Positions 3,736-16,103 of a stretch of 64,000 nucleotides of DNA are shown here, in pieces. This DNA is from an uncultured Gammaproteobacteria bacterium (GTDB taxonomy: Bacteria; Pseudomonadota; Gammaproteobacteria; UBA9214), in assembly GCA_963773065.1 (NCBI GenBank), contig CAVYZN010000017.1:1-64000 (forward strand), written 5' to 3'. Numbering within the stretch: position 1 is the first letter of the stretch; each line of letters opens with the position of its first letter. The notes under the pieces were generated by a model. That model saw only the letters and a list, made by a program, of their open reading frames with translations, did not search any database and was not told where the DNA came from. The position numbers and the translations under genes were made by a program.

Positions 3736-5117
3736 GGGTCATCGCGTAATCGTGTGGGTAAAAACTGGCATTGCAGTGTAGCCAGACCCTGTAATTACCG
3801 GCATAAACAGCATTTGCTGAGGCACAGGAATTTAGCATGATAACCCGATGGCTACCTCACGCAAACGACCCCGCCGATTGGCGGATGCATACACCTTCCC
3901 CGGTTTCCGTCCCCAGGCCACGGTGCGCGGTGTGTTCGGAGACCCGCAGGCCCGTGTCGTCACGCTTACACGGCGGTCAAAAAAACGGTTTGCAGCGTCT
4001 GTGGGCGTGCGCATTCGGGTTGGTACGATCGCAAAGTCCGACGGGTACGCGACCTGTCCTGCGGCGACACCCGTGTGTACCTCGACCTGGAGATCCGGCG
4101 TGTGGCGTGCCGGCGCTGCGGCAAGGTGAAGCGCGAGCGGTTGGACTTTCTGGCCGACAATCCGCTGTACACGAAGCGGTTCGCCCATTACGTAGGCCGG
4201 CGCTGCGCCAGCGCCACGATCAAAGCGGTGGCCAAGGAACTGCGCCTGGACTGGCACACGGTCAAGGAACTGGACAAGCAATACATGCGGTCGCAACTGG
4301 CCCGCGCGGGCACGCCGGGCCCCAAGGCGATCGGCATCGATGAGATCTCGATTCGCAAGGGACACACCTACCGCATCGTGGTCAGCGATCTCATCCGTTG
4401 CCGGCCGATCTGGTTCGGTGGCACGGACCGTTCCGAGGCGAGCATGGCGCAGTTTTATGACTGGCTCGGAGAAAAGAAGGCCAAACGCATCCGCCTGGCG
4501 GTGATGGACATGTGGAAACCGTTTCGCAATGTGGCTCAGGAACGCGCCCCGCAGGCGGCGATCCTGTTCGACAAGTTCCATGTGATGCGCCACCTGGGCA
4601 AGGCTCTGGATCAGGTACGCAAGAGCGAATATGCCCGCCTCAGCGGCAAAGAGCGGCGCTACATCAAGGGGCAGAAGTACACGCTGCTCTCGCGCAAGGA
4701 AAACCTGAGCCTGGAAGGCCGCACGGCGCTGAAGGCCCTGCTGGCGGCCAACCGGCGCCTCAACACCGCCTATCTGCTCAAGGAATCCTTTGGCCAGCTC
4801 TGGGACTACGAACGCGAGGGCTGGGCACGGCGCTTCTTCGACAACTGGCGTGCCAGCCTCAAGTGGCAACGCCCGAAGCCTTACGAGAAGTTCGCTGAGA
4901 TGATCGAGCGTCATTGGGATGGAATCGCCGCCTACTGCAAGCCCAAGAACAAAGTCTCGCTCGGCTTCGTCGAGGGACTGAACAACAAAATCCGCGTCAT
5001 CCAGCGCCGCGCATACGGGCTGCGCGATGAAGAGTATCTGCGACTCAAGATACTGACGTGCATGCTGCCGATCCTCTAAAATGACCGAAAAGCACCCACA
5101 CGATTACGCGAAGAGCC
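3736..5117 (+). mobile_element. ISL3-family IS, copy 1
   Basis: 23-bp terminal IRs GGGTCATCGCGTAATCGTGTGGG / CCCACACGATTACGCGAAGAGCC; 8-bp TSD TAAAAAAT at 3728-3735 and 5118-5125. Confidence 0.95.
3848..5079 (+). CDS. ISL3 transposase expressed across a -1 frameshift at A7 (3979-3985)
   Basis: IGIDEIS, AVMDMW, DKFHV, VEGLNNKIRVIQRRAYG motifs; zinc-finger CxxC in the -1 frame. Confidence 0.9.
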
Positions 5118-5218: not shown

Positions 5219-5295
5219 TTGTCCGCGATCGGGGGAGAAGCGGTCAGTCGATAAACTTGATGCTGAATGTCGCCTTGGGGTCGGAATTTGCCTTT
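5219..5295. repeat. Pair of module-boundary sites
   Basis: GTC-CGCGAT-CGGGGGA-GAAGCG-GTC (5221) and AATGTC-GCCTTG-GGGTCG-GAATTT-GCC (5266); the latter matches 15300 at 15/18 nt. Confidence 0.6.
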
Positions 5296-5379
5296 TGGAC
5301 ACTACCTGTCAGATAAAGTCAGAACCAGTACACCTTATGTCGTTCCGCCGCCGCCCGGTGAGAAATGCGGGCGAGGGAG

Positions 5380-8451: not shown

Positions 8452-8525
8452 TGGAGCGGGTGATGGGAATCGAACCCACGTTAGTAGCTTGGGAAGCTAC
8501 AGTTCTACCATTGAACTACACCCGC
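8452..8525 (-). tRNA. tRNA-Gly (CCC)
   Basis: GCGGGTGTAGTTCAATGGTAGAACTGTAGCTTCCCAAGCTACTAACGTGGGTTCGATTCCCATCACCCGCTCCA: cloverleaf, CCC anticodon, CCA end. Confidence 0.97.
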
Positions 8526-8742
8526 TTAATTCTTGGGGTACAAGAGTTTACCGAATAGCCGGGGTGAATGTCACAACCTCACGGTAGAGGAATGGTGCCT
8601 GGGGTAAAAAGCGACCACACAAAGCAACTCAAGGTATCCCGCCTAATGGTGTAGATATTCATCACGTATCTTAATGGACACTGTTCGAAAGAGTATTACC
8701 GAGTGAATCTGAAATTTGGTGATTCCAGCAGTTGAATCGCCT
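8488..8742 (-). repeat. Left arm of ~250-bp inverted repeat (tRNA promoter + tRNA 5' half)
   Basis: Reverse complement aligns with 15390-15641; about 20 differences by eye. Confidence 0.95.
8545..8574 (-). promoter_or_regulatory. Putative sigma70 promoter of tRNA-Gly
   Basis: Minus strand GTGACA-N18-TAAACT about 20 nt upstream of the tRNA; also present in the right arm (15556-15584). Confidence 0.55.
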
Positions 8743-8746
8743 AAGC

Positions 8747-8836
8747 AAGTTATTTCGATCCGACCCGGGCATTCGCGGAAGCACAGTACCATAGTTGTTG
8801 GAGTTCGGACATGACGGCTGTCGGCCACTTTCGGAC
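8747..8836. repeat. Pair of module-boundary sites at the inner edge of the left IR arm
   Basis: AAG-TTATTT-CGATCC-GACCCG-GGCATT and ATGAC-GGCTGT-CGGCCA-CTTTCG-GAC (20/26 identical to 10334). Confidence 0.65.
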
Positions 8837-8841
8837 TACAG

Positions 8842-8934
8842 TTATAACAATCAGGATCACCGGGCGGGAAGTTGAAGTAGCCGTGTGAAGCGAGCCCACC
8901 CCGTCTCCCGCTTCGGTGCATCTGATAGTTATGC
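8842..8934 (-). mobile_element. attC-like integron cassette site
   Basis: Minus strand GCATAAC-TATCAG-ATGCACCGAAGCGGGA...TCCCGCCCGGTGATCCTGATT-GTTATAA: R''/R' cores, paired L boxes with an extrahelical G, just after the stop of the YaaC-like ORF. Confidence 0.8.
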
Positions 8935-8957
8935 CATGGTTAGCCGGCAATGCCTTG

Positions 8958-10014
8958 TTATTCGATTGGTGGTTGGGTGGATCGTGGTGGCTTAGAATTC
9001 TGTTCTTTGATCACATCGGAAAGCAGTTCCGTCACCAATTCAGGATAAGAATATTCCACATATTGCTGCGCGCGATTCATCGTTGGCCACATGGTATCTC
9101 CTTTATCACCTTGGATAAGTGAAATCCAATGTGTAGGATAATACCGAACCAACATTCCCAAAATATACGAGACCATGTAGGTAATGCAGAGCTGGGAATA
9201 ACGAGCACCGCCCGAAAACGGCTCAGCGAGGTGCAAAGAAGGAATCGATCCAAATATTTTGTGCACGTATGTGTGAATAAACATTGGAAGTTCTTTAGTG
9301 AAAGTCTCCACGCCACATATAAGGGTGCACCAAAGACCTTCGCTGGTTGCGGTGTAACCGAATCCTTCATAAACAGCCCTGAATTGCGAAAACTGCTCCT
9401 CCCTGACCGTTGCTCGGAATCCCGCATCTTTGTTGAAGGTCATACGACTGATCTCGGCATATCTCGTAACATTAGAGACGTTCGCATAATCCATTTGTAG
9501 ATCGGGAATCCGAGAAAATAAGTCGCCTACTGAAAATTCTACGCCGGGCTTGGGGATATCATAGCAAAGATGTCAATCAACCCCGGCCGAATTGACATGA
9601 ATAGGAACCCGTTTTTTGTATGCGCGACAAAATCTGAAAATAAACCGGTACGCGTTCGTATTTTTAGTTCGCCTAATTGCTTCAATCCCACGGCAGTATC
9701 GCCCGACTAATATTGCCCCAACCGACTGTTTCTATGCCGTGACCGGCAGTCAATCCCTCTTCTCCGCCGCTGACCTTAAACAGCAATAGAAGGGCGCGAC
9801 TTAAACAGGCGACGCCGTAAAAAGTAAGAAGCGGGCGTACTGAATAGTTTGAGTTGCTCGCATTCCTGAAGAACTCTCGCGCCTGTTTCGCAGCGGCGTT
9901 TATCTCACGCGCTCGACGTACGTTTAGTTTCCTTGAATGTATTCGCTCGAACCACTGTTGCGTTATGTCTCGGCTCTCAAGTGAAAGTAATTGCTGCCAG
10001 ATTTCCTGATTCAA
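8958..10014 (-). CDS. YaaC-like protein (frameshifted: 9682-10014 plus 8958-9494)
   Basis: QAREFF..A....VRPLLTFYG, HGI and SYILGMLVRYYPTHW motifs resemble the YaaC family. Confidence 0.7.
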
Positions 10015-10207
10015 TGTTCTTTATGCTCAAAAGGTTTCAGCGAGGAATGGGTTCTTCTTCTACATAATAACAATTAGAGGGCCTAGAAATCAGGTTTGTA
10101 TTATTACTTTTAGGTCATGTTTGTATTCAGGCTTATATTAAAATCAACATGATGTTGTCATGTTACATAGCCTATTGGTTTTTCAAACCTTGCCTTTGAA
10201 AATATTG

Positions 10208-10361
10208 AATGACTGGATCGGTGCGACTCCGCCAATTAGCCGATCCGAATAAAAGAGCCGGCTGAATTTCGAGTTAGAGCCGTTACACGACATAACCATG
10301 ACCAAAGAAACCCTGCTGATGTGGGGTCCCTGGCTGGCGACTGTCGGCCACAAACGGACGT
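10208..10361. repeat. Two module-boundary sites
   Basis: AATGACTGGATCGGTGCGACTCCGCCAATT (10208) and CTGGCGACTGTCGGCCACAAACGGACGT (10334). Confidence 0.6.
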
Positions 10362-10664
10362 GTACCAACGCTGGCCGAAGCCATAGTCTATGTTGTCACC
10401 CATCACCTCAACCAACTGTACTAAATAAAGGTTATTTACATACAAATATTTCACTAATACGGCGCAGGGCTATATGAGCAAACCCTATTGCAATAAGAAG
10501 AGTCATGTCCTAATTCTCCACACTTCGCAACGCATGAGTAGTTGGGTGTGGGTGATCTATCCTGCTGACCGCTAGATGACTGGGGTTGATATGTACTGTA
10601 AGAATCATTAGACATAGATTCCCGATGCTGATGCACTAGATGATGAACTCCATTTATGCATATA

Positions 10665-10988
10665 TCACGAGGCATAGTTTTGATATCGATACACCTGCCA
10701 CTCAGCACTTTTAATGTTAACAACCATAGCTTGCTGATAACCGGTGTATCCGCCAAATGCATTTTTGGCATTGACCTCAACGCAAGCACCCATTCCATCA
10801 ACCAAGGTCATATTCCCAAATTTCGCAGAATCTGGGTCTTTTAATGCACTAAGAACAGCGCGAACAAGTTCACTCTGTTGATCTGTATTAGGAACTGACA
10901 AATTTAATGGTGGCAAAGGTGGAGAAATGGCACAACCCGTTAAGCACATCGCTGTAACAGCTATAACGATCAACTGTCGAAATTGCAT
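10665..10988 (-). CDS. Small lipoprotein of unknown function
   Basis: Lipobox LTGC; LKDPDSAKF...CVEVNAKNAFGGYTG motif. Confidence 0.75.
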   Translation of the reverse strand: MQFRQLIVIAVTAMCLTGCAISPPLPPLNLSVPNTDQQSELVRAVLSALKDPDSAKFGNMTLVDGMGACVEVNAKNAFGGYTGYQQAMVVNIKSAEWQVYRYQNYAS

Positions 10989-11007
10989 GGTGTACCTCTC
11001 GTCAAGA

Positions 11008-11036
11008 AATGACCACTTCCGGTCATTCGACATGCC
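11008..11036. repeat. Single module-boundary site
   Basis: AATGAC-CACTTC-CGGTCA-TTCGAC-ATG, just upstream of the lipoprotein start. Confidence 0.45.
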
Positions 11037-11082
11037 AAAATTGAGTTACACCTAACAAGTAGAGTCACCTGCAATGGTTTTT

Positions 11083-11608
11083 CTAATTGTCACGTATCAC
11101 ATCCGACATTGACAACTTGTCCTTGTTCCTCTTTCTCCAGAATGTTTTACATTTCTGACACTGGAAGCCAATGAAGTTTTCATCAATAGCGGTTACCTGA
11201 CCTGTACCGCCACACCTCAAACACGTTGACGTAATTTTCCGACTGGTACCTGCATCCGCCCCCATTAAACCGCCAAGTATCGCACAAGTGGACCGAATGC
11301 ACTCCCTATGACGATTCCCCCTAATGAGCCTGCTGCTATGTCAACTATATTGTTTTTTGTTCTCGTAGGTTTGCCATAATATGGTTTGCAATGATGCTGT
11401 TTTCTTACCCTTTCTATAAAACGAACATTTTTTGCTGCAGGCCTATTATTTTTTCCGGTGCCAATTTCGAAGGATACTTTATCTCCATTTTGTATGACTT
11501 CTTCTGATTTATATTCGCTTACGTAAAAAACAGGTCATTAGCCATGTCAGCAACTAAGATAAAGCCGTAACCCTTATCATTCGAAAACCACTTAACAGTG
11601 CCTTCCAT
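11083..11608 (-). CDS. Cold-shock domain + glycine zipper + zinc-ribbon protein (frameshifted)
   Basis: Manual translation MEGTVKWFSNDKGYGFI..., GSLGGIVIGS, C-terminal CLRC...CQKC. Confidence 0.7.
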
Positions 11609-12093
11609 AAGAGCTTAGACGAAATGCAGTCTAGTGCAGCGCCTTTTAACTGTTTTCCATTTCAGGTTTGCTTCCCCAATATTTTACTGCTTATATGCAG
11701 CATAACCAAGGCCTGCACCTCCCGCGATACCAACAATGACCGGCCATAAAGGAGCTGAAACTAGGCCTACTGAAACACCCACTCCTCCCAAAGCTTGTGA
11801 GCCTATTATGGTAACGGACCCTGCAGCTACTGTACTGCCAGCCGCAGCTCCAATGCTTGCACCTATAGCAGCGCTACCTGTACTAGCCGAAGCATCAATA
11901 GTATCTTCAGGTAGTTTTTTCAGCTCATCGATGAAGCCTTGAAGTCCATCGATGAAGCCTTGAAGTTCTTTCATAGATTTTGCAACGATTTTTACTGAAA
12001 TGGTATTGAGCTTAATTACCTTGTCTTTGAATTCGGACAGTGCGGACAAAACTTTTGCGTCATTTATACACCTCCGGGCACCATCAACAATTA

Positions 12094-13475
12094 GGGTCAT
12101 CGCGTAATCGTGTGGGTAAAAACTGGCATTGCAGTGTGGCCAGACCCTGTAATTACCGGCATAAACAGCATTTGCTGAGGCACAGGAATTTGCATGATAA
12201 CCCGATGGCTACCTCACGCAAACGACCCCGCCGATTGGCGGATGCATACACCTTCCCCGGTTTCCGTCCCCAGGCCACGGTGCGCGGTGTGTTCGGAGAC
12301 CCGCAGGCCCGTGTCGTCACGCTTACACGGCGGTCAAAAAAACGGTTTGCAGCGTCTGTGGGCGTGCGCATTCGGGTTGGTACGATCGCAAAGTCCGACG
12401 GGTACGCGACCTGTCCTGCGGCGACACCCGTGTGTACCTCGACCTGGAGATCCGGCGTGTGGCGTGCCGGCGCTGCGGCAAGGTGAAGCGCGAGCGGTTG
12501 GACTTTCTGGCCGACAATCCGCTGTACACGAAGCGGTTCGCCCATTACGTAGGCCGGCGCTGCGCCAGCGCCACGATCAAAGCGGTGGCCAAGGAACTGC
12601 GCCTGGACTGGCACACGGTCAAGGAACTGGACAAGCAATACATGCGGTCGCAACTGGCCCGCGCGGGCACGCCGGGCCCCAAGGCGATCGGCATCGATGA
12701 GATCTCGATTCGCAAGGGACACACCTACCGCATCGTGGTCAGCGATCTCATCCGTTGCCGGCCGATCTGGTTCGGTGGCACGGACCGTTCCGAGGCGAGC
12801 ATGGCGCAGTTTTATGACTGGCTCGGAGAAAAGAAGGCCAAACGCATCCGCCTGGCGGTGATGGACATGTGGAAACCGTTTCGCAATGTGGCTCAGGAAC
12901 GCGCCCCGCAGGCGGCGATCCTGCTCGACAAGTTCCATGTGATGCGCCACCTGGGCAAGGCTCTGGATCAGGTACGCAAGAGCGAATATGCCCGCCTCAG
13001 CGGCAAAGAGCGGCGCTACATCAAGGGGCAGAAGTACACGCTGCTCTCGCGCAAGGAAAACCTGAGCCTGGAAGGCCGCACGGCGCTGAAGGCCCTGCTG
13101 GCGGCCAACCGGCGCCTCAACAACCGCCTATCTGCTCAAGGAATCCTTTGGCCAGCTCTGGGACTACGAACGCGAGGGCTGGGCACGGCGCTTCTTCGAC
13201 AACTGGCGTGCCAGCCTCAAGTGGCAACGCCCGAAGCCTTACGAGAAGTTCGCTGAGATGATCGAGCGTCATTGGGATGGAATCGCCGCCTACTGCAAGC
13301 CCAAGAACAAAGTCTCGCTCGGCTTCGTCGAGGGACTGAACAACAAAATCCGCGTCATCCAGCGCCGCGCATACGGGCTGCGCGATGAAGAGTATCTGCG
13401 ACTCAAGATACTGACGTGCATGCTGCCGATCCTCTAAAATGACCCAAAAGCACCCACACGATTACGCGAAGAGCC
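12094..13475 (+). mobile_element. ISL3-family IS, copy 2
   Basis: Near-identical to copy 1; TSD AACAATTA at 12086-12093 and 13476-13483. Confidence 0.95.
12205..13437 (+). CDS. ISL3 transposase copy 2 (A7 at 12336-12342; extra A near 13122)
   Basis: Same protein as copy 1 up to the 1-nt insertion. Confidence 0.85.
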
Positions 13476-14048
13476 AACAATTAAGGCAACACCCACTAAT
13501 AATACTGATCCATTTACAACAAGATTATTCATGTCTACAGCAGGGGTGGTTACATCGGCTGTCGCATTGTGAACTAAATCCCCTGCGGTATACCCCGCTA
13601 AAGCTAATACAGCGGTTGCACCACCAATTAAAGAGCGGTATTCCAATTGCACTACCCATGCCAGCTACACCAATTGAGCCTAATATGTAACCAGCTACAG
13701 CTCCTGCCCCAGCACCACGTAGCCTGCTATAGATTCTGTATTAAATCCTGATTCAGTATTAACTGCAGATTCAACACCTGGGCCACCAAGTTCTGTACCA
13801 ACGAATTCCGACCCCATTTCTATAACACCGCTATGAACTCCCCATGCAACAAGGCCTGCGCCAACAGCCATTTCACCAACCCCAACTGCCCACTGGTTTT
13901 CAGAGCACCATTTCTTAACGTACTTCAAGGCATCAGAAAAACTTTTTGATTCATTATCTGATAGTTCAAATTCTTTAGACACTGGCTACCCCTCCTTATT
14001 GCATGTGGCTTTTGATAAGACACTTGAAAAAGTCAGCTTTATATAGTG

Positions 14049-14131
14049 CCTTGCAACTTGGGTCGGCTCCCGCCGTCTAAAATCTTATATAAGCGTCTCG
14101 TGTAGGACAGGGATCGGCCAACTCCGGACGT
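14049..14131. repeat. Pair of module-boundary sites with CTTATATAAGC in the spacer
   Basis: ...CAACTT-GGGTCG-GCTCCC-GCCGT and GAC-AGGGAT-CGGCCA-ACTCCG-GACGT. Confidence 0.6.
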
Positions 14132-14240
14132 ACAGCTCAAAAGAAAACGGCGATCTGAAGGCGTCGGCACTTCATGATCAGATTCTTGCCTCTAATCCTT
14201 TTAAAAACGGTAACCGCCCTTGCGCTCTGACAATTCAGTG

Positions 14241-15147
14241 CTAGTCGGGGCCACGGACCGGCCAGACCTTAAAAGAGATAGTAATCATGATCGGCCTCCA
14301 AGTGATCCTTGTCTGAGATTCGCAATGCACTATCGGCCGCCCCCAATGAAACAACCCATGCATCAGCACCGCCATAGACATTGCTCGTGGATGACCAATA
14401 GCGTGGATCCGCATTGATATTGTTGAATGGATAGTTCAAAGGTAAGGCAGGATAAGACTTGCCAAAATCTATCAGACTTAGCAGTTCCCTGACGTTAGCC
14501 AATCTCCAGTCAGTTTTACCTGCACCGCAATTCGGATACGTCCCATCGTTGATACCAGCCACAAAGTCCAAGGCATGTTGCCAAGTGACTAAGCCATCCC
14601 CTAGGGTATTCTCGTTGTCAAACGCTGGATAACTCGTAGCTACCGTGGATTCTAGCCAGATAAGTCCAGTCAGATTATCAACGACCGTACCGTCCTCCTT
14701 GTCAGTGAACCTTGGTTTGGGCCAAGGGATGCCTTTTTGATACTCCCCATCTTGGCCTGTACCGTACAGTCGATTTGAGCCCCAACTTGGTCATAACAAG
14801 TAGTCTGCCCTGTTTGTGGTACTGGCGCAGGTAGACAACATTGCAGTCTCAAACGTCGCTGTTAGAGACGTTGGCGAAGTCAACTTGATCTTACATGTAA
14901 GCTCGGTGCCGACACATGCACCATTCCAGCCAAGGAAACTAGTATTGGGATTTGCAGTAGCCGTTAGGGTGATTGTTGAACTCTTGTTGTAGCTTTCGAC
15001 ACAGTCAGACGGACATATGATGCCCGCAGGATCGCTGACCACAACCCCGTCACCTTGCACCGTGACTGTAAGGGATATTTGGGGGGGTGCGGCGAATACA
15101 TTCGCCGCAAAAAGGGTAGACAGAAAAATAAGGAGACTCGCTTTCAT
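14241..15147 (-). CDS. Secreted DUF1566/Lcl-C-type domain protein with N-terminal InlB B-repeat-like domain (frameshifted)
   Basis: Signal peptide; ITLTATA..FLGWNGAC; PVPQTGQTTCY; DNLTGLIW; DWRLANVRELLSL; YWSST; VWPVRG. Confidence 0.82.
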
Positions 15148-15300
15148 CGTTATCCTCCAATTTTAGTTATTCCAGCCTGACTTATTCTTGTTGCTCTGCT
15201 CATAGGGGGAAACCTTACTACATTTCACCAGACTTCCTGTTGATGTTAATCATGGAAGAGGCTGATTTCCTATTCTGGACAATGAGCCAGGTGTTCGCGA

Positions 15301-15388
15301 AAGTCGCTTTAGGGTCGTGCTTTCTCATTCAGTCACCGCTTATATAAGCTGTAATTAAACGGCAAATTAGGGATCGAAACCAGTCGTT
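15301..15388. repeat. Pair of module-boundary sites abutting the right IR arm, GCTTATATAAGC in the spacer
   Basis: AAGTC-GCTTTA-GGGTCG-TGCTTT-CTCATT and AACGGC-AAATTA-GGGATCG-AAACCA-GTCGTT. Confidence 0.65.
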
Positions 15389-15389
15389 G

Positions 15390-15641
15390 AGGCGATTCAA
15401 CTGCTGGAATCACCAAATTTCAGATTCACTCGGTAATACTCTTTCGAACAGTGTCCATTAAGATACGTGGTGAATATCTACACCATCAGGCGGAGTGCCC
15501 TTAGTTGCTTTGTGTGGTCGTTTCTTGCCCCAGACACCATTCCTACCGTCGGGTGGTGACATTCACCCAGCGATTCGGTAAACTCTTGTACTCCAAGAAT
15601 TAAGCGGGTGTAGTTCAATGGTAGAACTGTAGCTTCCCAAG
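15390..15641 (+). repeat. Right arm of ~250-bp inverted repeat
   Basis: Matches the reverse complement of 8488-8742. Confidence 0.95.
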
Positions 15642-15675
15642 AAGTTTGTGTAGGTCGTCATCCCCAACACCCCTG
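15604..15675 (+). pseudogene. tRNA-Gly(CCC) pseudogene: exact 5' 38 nt, degenerate 3' half
   Basis: GCGGGTGTAGTTCAATGGTAGAACTGTAGCTTCCCAAG identical, then ...GTGTAGGTCGTCATCCCCAACACCCC versus GTGGGTTCGATTCCCATCACCCG. Confidence 0.85.
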
Positions 15676-15809
15676 ATTTCACTTCGTTCTCCGCTTAGAT
15701 CGCATCAGATTCGCTCTCAATCCGAATATCGACCTGATACCATTCCGCGCCAGCGATCGATTTCGGTCCTCACACCCACGCCGAATGAACGTGGAAGGAA
15801 GGAGGGAAA

Positions 15810-16103
15810 ATGACTGAAGCTACCGAGAAAGAGGCCGGCATTATCCAGGTGCTGGCGGAGCGGATGGAGAAGCAGCGACTGCCCATGGCGCTGGCGCTCA
15901 AGGCGAAGGTCGATCAGGGCGGACTGCTGGATGACATGGACATCGCCTTCCTGGAGGAAGTTTTCGCGAATACCGCGCAACTCAAGCCCCTGCTGGATGC
16001 CCATCCGGAATGGCAGGAGCTGGCCATGCGCATGCTCGGTCTCTACAAGGAGATTACGGAAAAGGCGCTCGAGAACGAACAGGGAGCCCATAAGGGAGAA
16101 TAA
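15810..16103 (+). CDS. Conserved hypothetical protein
   Basis: Strong RBS; QRLP.AL.LKAKVDQG..L...DI.FL pattern; host-like codon usage. Confidence 0.75.
   Translation: MTEATEKEAGIIQVLAERMEKQRLPMALALKAKVDQGGLLDDMDIAFLEEVFANTAQLKPLLDAHPEWQELAMRMLGLYKEITEKALENEQGAHKGE

Follow-up and report, generated by a model that had tools for sequence, protein, structure and literature searches.

The stretch of DNA analysed here, called the window throughout, comprises the first 64,000 nucleotides (nt) of contig CAVYZN010000017.1 (C17) in the genome assembly of an uncultured gammaproteobacterium of the UBA9214 lineage (GCA_963773065.1, G000), a draft of 33 contigs that is 90.9% complete and 6.3% contaminated. 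The only transfer RNA (tRNA) gene that ARAGORN detects in the window is tRNA-Gly(CCC), and the CCC anticodon is present in a single copy among the 47 tRNAs of the assembly. This gene stands at one end of a segment bracketed by inverted repeats, here called arms, in each of which the promoter region and 5' half of the gene are represented. The features that define the structure are as follows.

8452-8525, minus strand: intact tRNA-Gly(CCC) gene (ARAGORN; Rfam RF00005, 71.1 bits).
8488-8761, minus strand: left arm, made up of tRNA bases 1-38 and 236 nt upstream (repeat search, BLAST, alignment); the outer junction, where it meets the 3' half, is native and the inner junction, 8761/8762, is novel.
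15371-15641, plus strand: right arm, made up of 233 nt of upstream region and tRNA bases 1-38 (repeat search, BLAST, alignment); its inner junction looks native and its outer junction is novel.
8545-8574, minus strand: promoter-like site GTGACA-18-TAAACT upstream of the intact tRNA, with hexamers that also stand upstream of intact tRNAs in other genera.
15556-15584, plus strand: promoter-like site GTGACA-17-TAAACT, directed outward to the right-flank genes (promoter scan).
8762-15370: low-GC accessory segment of 6.6 kb between the arms, with a GC content of 42-51% outside its insertion sequence (IS) against 58-67% in the flanks.
15642-15809, plus strand: spacer after the tip of the right arm, 12 of whose first 14 nt are shared with the same junction in the related genome G002 (counted by eye).
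15810-16103, plus strand: open reading frame (ORF) of 97 codons with no Pfam family, co-oriented with the right-arm promoter.

The original prediction, made from the sequence alone, had described inverted repeats of ~250 bp bracketing 8488-15641, and the repeat search, BLAST and alignment agree that the pair is real. Three adjoining inverted pieces were returned by the repeat search (8488-8563/15566-15641, 76 nt, 96%; 8562-8587/15543-15568, 26 nt, 88%; 8588-8761/15371-15544, 174 nt, 90%), and BLAST of the stretch against its own genome gave one match, 15371-15641 to 8488-8761, at 91% identity. The inner limits thus fall at 8761 and 15371, 19 nt further inward than the predicted 8742 and 15390, and the divergence amounts to 26 differing columns, gaps included, rather than about 20 (248 of 274 columns identical; 9.5% divergence). 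A stretch of ~80 nt of inner identity was also as predicted, being the longest identical run (80 nt, 8663-8742); another run, of 49 nt, includes the tRNA half.

Both tRNA halves face outward and both stop at the 3' edge of the anticodon loop, ...GTAGCTTCCCAAG, in agreement with the prediction that each arm ends there and that only the left one is completed by a 3' half, as the ARAGORN and Rfam calls confirm. The fragment on the right (tRNA bases 1-38, 15604-15641) lies ~7.1 kb from the tRNA on the opposite strand and ends ...GTAGCTTCCCAAG at 15641; it drew no ARAGORN call and no Rfam family at E<=1. A decayed 3' half following the right tip was considered and rejected, the sequence there scoring 3.0 against a shuffle mean of 3.1 (p ~0.6), so that the right arm indeed lacks a 3' half, and the after-tip sequences of 8 copies of the arm all aligned to the tRNA 3' half with scores within the shuffle range.

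Gene order in related genomes identifies the ancestral arrangement. In five genomes of other genera of the same family (G012, G018, G015, G008 and G010), the right-flank genes of the window (16225 onward) adjoin the promoter side of the tRNA, with a gap of 176 nt in G012, and among the genomes compared the left-flank genes adjoin the tRNA only inside the genus of the window. From this order it follows that 8526 to ~16224 is an insertion and that the right arm has been flipped. The right arm is turned round in such a way that the anticodon tip, not the promoter, faces the old neighbour genes. Upstream of the intact tRNAs in G012, G018 and G015 lies the motif GGTGGTGAC(A/T) and then GTAAACT, which G008 and G010 have in a looser form; it is invariant in 8/8 aligned arms, as are the GTGACA and TAAACT hexamers. 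Since the promoter motif is kept in other genera and in both arms, both window arms carry a native-type promoter. Compared over 255 columns, the two window arms and that of G004, the nearest relative, are equally distant from one another (20, 21 and 21 differences), and neither window arm is therefore visibly foreign. Comparison of upstream regions in relatives had been proposed as a means of distinguishing a native from an element-derived promoter; at the window it returned a native-type promoter on both arms and no element-derived one.

Displacement of the 5' half is supported in relatives, among them G002, one of four congeners (G001-G004). Here, three direct copies of the 5' half (tRNA bases 1-39, 100% identical) lie on one contig, all ending in the anticodon loop and all followed by a common downstream sequence, 'b' (~135 nt, 85-86% identity). 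A non-native module, 'a' (~250 nt, 86-95% identity), stands upstream of two of these copies and of the intact tRNAs of G002 and G001, and the third copy has the native promoter, which is what a native 5' half would carry after displacement. The junctions are therefore two of the form a-5'half-b and one of the form native-promoter-5'half-b, in direct orientation (places of modules 'a' and 'b': L027 6703-7130; L028 3614-4034; L073 8685-8934; L011 1579-1716). The two modules look like attP-type junctions, with no integrase nearby, and the pattern is what would be expected if the anticodon loop is the integration site of a-5'half-b elements, which thereby displace the native promoter and 5' half. 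The prediction that an element supplies the 5' half and promoter of its target tRNA thus gains support as a mechanism in G002 and G001, through module 'a'; in the window, both arms carry the native-type promoter.

Related duplications extend beyond the genus. Direct duplications of tRNA bases 1-56 are present in another genus (G022, G035 and G071, with a diverged one in G007); these have the native promoter in front and lie ~180 nt upstream of the intact tRNA (G022: L030 8922-9290). Within the spacer after the bases 1-56 copy is a hairpin, part of which is a 13-nt piece reverse-complementary to the T arm of the tRNA. Further lone 5' fragments are found in G015 and G003, the G015 junction being at the same anticodon-loop position.

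Inverted pairs with outward tips recur as well. The pair on contig C34 of G002 has arms of 909 nt that are 100% identical (L028 10059-10967 / 13920-14828) with 2952 nt between them; only the outer 111 nt of each arm are homologous to the window arms, and the cargo consists of GtrA, whose gene begins within the left arm, together with a family-2 glycosyltransferase and DUF6056. G002 and the window have the right junction in common, with 82% BLAST identity to 14 nt past the tip and then the same flank genes, and because those 14 nt are unlike the local repeat family (see below) the shared junction is most simply inherited. The DNA of the 97-codon ORF likewise matches G002, G003 and G001, and G002 has an ORF of 97 codons at the corresponding place. 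A second pair in G000 itself, on contig C14 (38026-43044; L006 6027-11044), has arms of 127 nt, 99% identical and 4764 nt apart, that carry the tRNA-Gly(CCC) promoter and 5' part with no intact tRNA nearby. Its tRNA-like part extends to base 49 in the form usual in other genera, its right junction is also present in G027 (C86), of another genus, and its cargo comprises an ISL3 remnant, a DUF7453 protein and a probable PEP-CTERM protein (read from the C-terminus, with no family call).

Three bracketed segments of 4.8-7.2 kb from tip to tip, with unlike cargo and outward tips, could reflect a non-autonomous mobile unit that has the tRNA-Gly(CCC) promoter and 5' half as its ends, carries exchangeable cargo and is moved in trans; insertion of such a unit in the anticodon loop would regenerate the tRNA in either direction. 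Two of the three pairs are 99-100% identical, and a 190-nt module (promoter, tRNA bases 1-49 and ~60 nt beyond) occurs in both C14 and G027 in different gene contexts, which also speaks for such a unit. We nevertheless regard this explanation as quite unlikely. A transposon would combine a target-site duplication with its own transposase, and no target-site duplication was seen by eye in the printed flanks of the three units (window, C14 and G002), while the sole transposase is that of an ISL3 element with its own 24-nt ends. The arm lengths (127, 274 and 909 nt) and inner sequences differ, the head-to-head native 5'-half copy expected at the other end is absent, and the window and G002 share both right junction and flank, so that they are one event and not two insertions. 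Scans with exact patterns, by which diverged relatives would be missed, gave no match in metagenome contigs, no match in viral contigs and only the G002 contig among species-representative genomes.

The segment between the arms contains the following features, together with several small ORFs without family.

8958-10014, minus strand: YaaC-like gene in two pieces (Pfam PF14175).
12094-13475, plus strand: ISL3-family IS of 1382 bp with its own 24-nt inverted ends (PF01610, PF13542) and a transposase frame in two pieces.
14269-15147, minus strand: split secreted-protein gene (Flg_new_2, PF18998, at 14791-15147; Lcl_C, PF07603, at 14269-14571).

The N-terminal piece of the YaaC-like gene (9682-10014, E 6.9e-13) covers positions 4-95 of the 307 in the profile and the C-terminal piece (8958-9494, E 1.6e-11) positions 224-306. 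With the IS and short repeats excepted, the interior has no match in the four congeners. An identical ISL3 copy lies at 3736-5117 in direct orientation, and three further copies in the genome are 95-99% identical; were the two window copies to recombine, the tRNA and its left flank would be lost. Beside the left ISL3 copy, a sequence at window 5258-5376 recurs over 85-118 nt at 80-81% identity in two places, one in G004:C76 and the other immediately beyond the right arm of the pair on C14 (L006 11099-11182). In addition, short contigs of a soil metagenome (run X1) match window 14105-14606, part of the split Lcl_C gene, with 1-5 differences in 151-225 nt; this run lacks the rest of the stretch.

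Searches for recombinases covered the window, its genome and the related loci. The ten ORFs of the island matched no recombinase family in Pfam other than the ISL3 transposase, and none of the ten matched PF00589 (Phage_integrase), so that the predicted lack of an integrase inside is upheld. Of nine PF00589 matches in the genome none is on C17, and the single match to PF00239 (Resolvase) is on contig C21 and none is on C17; with both families absent from the contig, the dedicated invertase that a site-specific invertible segment would have inside or beside it was not found. For the partial-copy loci of relatives (G002, G001, G007, G015 and G027) and for C14, 58 ORFs, a few of them scanned twice, were searched against Pfam and PHROGs without yielding an integrase; the transposases seen in the partial-copy loci are IS630-type in G002 and IS3-type in G015. 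Elsewhere in the congeners, sets of three consecutive tyrosine-recombinase genes occur (G001:C140; G002:C18 and C90; G003:C526 and C544; G004:C239), with none in G000, and these resemble 'recombinase in trio' elements.

A family of quasi-palindromic repeats of ~76 nt, with ~13 loci in G000, a central TTATATAA and GGGATCGG in its stem or consensus, bears on the inner edges of the arms. Its members in this region, detected with nhmmer, are the following.

10225-10293: repeat-family member.
14059-14131: repeat-family member.
15302-15386: complete repeat-family member lying across the inner edge of the right arm (15370/15371), through which G004 continues.

The left arm breaks off inside a repeat, exactly at GGATCGAAA. 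This 9-nt sequence has exactly two copies in the window, at 8753-8761 and 15371-15379 (at least two copies arise in 11 of 100 shuffles), and both are the arms' own last 9 nt, not separate sites. The original prediction had placed a boundary site at both arm edges and connected it to cassette sites. The sequence is present at both edges, the left arm's repeat member being cut there, and that of the right arm does lie inside member 15302-15386; it is nonetheless arm sequence. The attC sites of integrons have the polarity R''(RYYYAAC)...R'(GTTRRRY), and the repeats, read by eye, run GTT...AAC on both strands, which is the reverse. The integron integrase profile TIGR02249 scores above its cut-off in G001, G002 and G003, and in G000 the best match reaches 81.8 bits where the cut-off is 265; a search of three intI loci for the repeat (E<=1e-3) gave no hit. 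Because the polarity is reversed and the repeats are absent beside these three loci, we do not call them attC, and an integron reading was dropped, there being no integrase in G000 above the cut-off and none beside the repeats examined, which in G001:C39 form arrays at 1.3-1.5 kb spacing. With regard to a reading as repetitive extragenic palindromic (REP) sequences with associated RAYT transposases, none of the 10 Y1_Tnp matches in G000 is next to a family member by coordinates. Membership of the repeat family was rejected for the sequences after the right tips of the window and G002, the left inner flank and the end of module 'b' in G002, whose best local scores lie on or close to the shuffle mean; the right flank of C14, which equals the shuffle maximum, is a borderline case. 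The ~76-nt repeats may be either REP-like or a recombination site.

The junctions and the distribution of differences give some insight into how the arms arose. Each arm seems to keep one native junction, the left arm that with the 3' half and the right arm that with a complete ~76-nt repeat, as in G004, whose tRNA-linked arm runs on for 27 nt, up to the contig end, with sequence resembling what flanks the window's RIGHT arm on its inner side (24/27, counted). These junctions would fit two histories, either an inversion that duplicated the breakpoint segment or a flip of an older inverted pair by homologous recombination, and under either history G004 would have the other junction type. The differences between the arms are clumped (80-nt identical run, P=0.002; 38/38 identical tRNA bases, P=0.017), a distribution that points to gene conversion or constraint.

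The first of these histories could have taken place in one step and without an integrase. Staggered breaks or a replication template switch at the anticodon stem-loop and at a ~76-nt palindromic repeat would have turned the upstream segment round and left two copies of the 274 nt lying between the breaks, with homologous flips later. Possession of exactly one native junction by each arm is the signature of a duplicated breakpoint segment, both novel junctions lie at the loop/stem border of hairpin-forming sequence, and no recombinase was found. We consider this history unlikely, as it leaves unexplained the recurring direct 5'-half junctions with conserved flanks in G002 and that in G015, as well as the presence of outward-tipped pairs at two loci. 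Furthermore, the ancestral join that it predicts (8762 reversed next to 15642) was not found, and the interior is unmatched in the four congeners.

Instead, we tentatively favour, with a confidence that falls a little short of even, the reading of the locus as a rearrangement scar at a recombination hotspot, tRNA-Gly(CCC), and not as an autonomous element or a programmed switch. According to this reading, the tRNA-Gly(CCC) of the family would have recombined repeatedly in the anticodon loop (elsewhere in the T loop), with its 5' part duplicated and displaced in the manner of the minority '5'-fragment' class, in which the element itself supplies an upstream region and 5' half. In a common ancestor with G002, a native promoter and 5' half would have been left inverted beside the ancestral neighbour genes, and a second native copy would have stayed joined to the 3' half. 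The accessory DNA between the arms would then have turned over between lineages, decaying in G000 to split genes and an IS. The arms would now be passive inverted repeats that may exchange patches by gene conversion, and a flip of the segment by homologous recombination between them is probably possible; because both arms end in the same 38 nt, an intact tRNA would result in either orientation.

Several observations weigh against this scenario. No integrase was found in or beside the loci examined (window, C14, G002:C34, the G001 island, G007, G015 and G027), and for this reason it is the positions of the junctions, and nothing else, from which we infer that an integrase took part. Modules 'a' and 'b' are confined to G001 and G002 among 54 genomes of the order and were not found in viral contigs by exact-match scans, which would miss diverged relatives; ordinary-looking genes (peptide deformylase, dCTP deaminase and a LysR regulator) lie between two of the G002 modules, which may therefore not be simple tandem elements. 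In the C14 pair the end lies 11 nt past the anticodon loop, followed by 8 further shared nt, and not at the loop. The inversion step itself is unexplained, since by our reasoning misaligned direct att sites would put the tips inward, not outward. Equidistance of the three arms does not show concerted evolution, and constraint alone could explain the identical blocks. The 27 nt of G004 fall within the repeat family, so that their orthology with the right-arm flank is not certain, and the assembled orientation of the interior depends on the path taken through the 80-nt identical block.

The geometry allows the 7-kb invertible segment of the original prediction, and the 27-nt flank of G004 fits it; no recombinase lies nearby, and two orientations have not been seen in one population. 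As a programmed switch, the locus would depend on a site-specific recombinase acting at two anticodon-loop sites to flip 7.15 kb, the tRNA being regenerated in both states and the arm that drives the right-flank genes changing with each flip. Such a switch would suit the coincidence of the arm tips to the base, the G004 junction, which fits the opposite orientation, the standing of the anticodon loop as a common integrase crossover site (PMC4383910), and the right-arm promoter, which is directed at the conserved 97-codon ORF and at a DsrE-like gene, no terminator-like site having been found in the spacer (15642-15809). We judge it very unlikely, given that no recombinase is present on C17 or beside the other pairs, that the arms are 9.5% diverged, that the cargo is decayed and differs between lineages, and that nothing visibly changes with orientation. 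Nor were both orientations observed together in public sequencing data: 13 runs matched (best share of sampled words, 0.12), the Logan contigs of runs X1, X2, X3 and X5 consist mostly of ISL3 and tRNA sequence plus short pieces, and no listed run contig spans the whole stretch or bridges an outer junction, the joints all being inside the IS.

A misjoin of contigs at the repeated tRNA region is a further explanation to weigh, the assembly being a draft of 33 contigs with 6.3% contamination; the 49-nt and 80-nt identical blocks of the arms might lead a short-k assembler to place the interior in the wrong ORIENTATION. An artefact is nevertheless extremely improbable. The 26 differing columns of 274 mean that the arms are two distinct loci, the right junction is also present in the separately assembled G002, and a metagenome contig of another study (run X5, record 31) covers the right arm and its inner flank.

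The scar interpretation can be compared with several known systems. Islands that leave a fragment of the 5' end of the tRNA gene (tDNA) are known as a minority class, and the structure described here is an unusual inverted variant; the figures of the Islander report (PMC4383910) are 159 of 3919 mapped islands with a 5' tDNA fragment and 2083 with an anticodon-centred site, and its method includes an orientation filter that rejects opposite-strand fragments and uses them to gauge false positives. By the definitions of Islander, the locus has an intact tDNA and a terminal fragment within 2-200 kb of each other (~7.1 kb) and, as required of a 5' fragment upstream of the tDNA, both segment and fragment are found 5' of the tRNA; the fragment occupies the other strand, not that of the tDNA, and no tyrosine integrase lies inside or overlaps the island. 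In PMC8371274, pTN3-like integrases are described as using a tRNA gene's 5' half, with the restored tRNA expressed from the integrase promoter of the element, and 5'-half integration with an element-driven tRNA is said to be seldom seen in bacteria. A full-text literature search that combined wordings for a tRNA gene's 5' part with attP and integrase returned no match. The locus is like 5'-fragment islands and pTN3 in its anticodon-loop crossover, the duplication of the 5' part and the accessory DNA on the 5' side of the tRNA, and it is like pTN3 in the intact tRNAs of G001 and G002, which stand behind a non-native upstream module. It differs in that the window has no integrase, the fragment is on the opposite strand and both copies have a native-type promoter.

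Inversions after integration provide a second comparison. According to PMC9897764, a later inversion in Thermococcus kodakarensis put partial and full tRNA copies on opposite strands, and such rearrangements, whether of this kind or the integrase-driven or homologous ones associated with pTN3, resemble the locus in that partial and full tRNA copies were inverted by a secondary event. The inversions in those sources are chromosomal, large in scale and run from one integrated element or tRNA gene to another, whereas the copies here closely bracket 3-7 kb, include a duplicated promoter and occur at two loci. The locus shares with invertible segments (Hin/Gin/Cin, shufflons and the fim switch) its border inverted repeats, with promoters facing out or in. 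Those systems have short sites (~26-30 bp), an adjacent dedicated recombinase and a clear difference in expression between states, none of which was seen at the window. Plastid inverted repeats may be homogenised by gene conversion; they expand and contract at their boundaries and allow the unique segment to flip-flop by homologous recombination. Long inverted repeats around a unique segment are common to both, and such processes could explain the perfect 909-nt pair as well as the diverged 274-nt pair; the kind of genome and the scale are different.

A more far-reaching proposal is that the promoter and 5' half of tRNA-Gly(CCC) serve as the ends of an exchangeable cargo slot that has no recombinase of its own: recombination within the arms or at the anticodon loop could invert or exchange the captured DNA, always with survival of the single-copy tRNA. 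The three outward-tipped instances with unrelated cargo, including a gtr-like glycosylation set within the perfect 909-nt pair, are the observations behind it, and we hold it to be improbable, something of a long shot. In a bolder variant, the anticodon stem-loop (GTAGC-loop-GCTAC) might be the hairpin substrate of a recombinase for single-strand DNA whose action extends to the ~76-nt palindromic repeats, which would explain why the junctions lie at loop/stem borders. A switch, a mobile unit with tRNA-derived ends and a hairpin-directed single-strand recombinase are each conceivable, and none has positive support.

The interpretation as a rearrangement scar has implications for the detection of islands and for the biology of this family. 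Standard island finders expect the tRNA gene and a 3' fragment of it to be oriented alike and an integrase to lie between the two, and the locus departs from this scheme in all three respects; it nevertheless marks a real hotspot of gene turnover. It also provides a bacterial example of the rarely seen duplication or replacement of the 5' half and promoter of a tRNA gene. Judging from the upstream sequences, the single-copy tRNA of G001 and G002 probably now runs from a non-native upstream region, and in the window the structure would put the tRNA promoter in front of neighbouring genes. If the pairs do not flip, they serve as a warning that a tRNA fragment in inverted orientation, though as a rule dismissed as noise, may be a true rearrangement scar. 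If it is true that they flip or swap cargo, they would offer a simple means of keeping an accessory slot open beside a tRNA without losing the tRNA.

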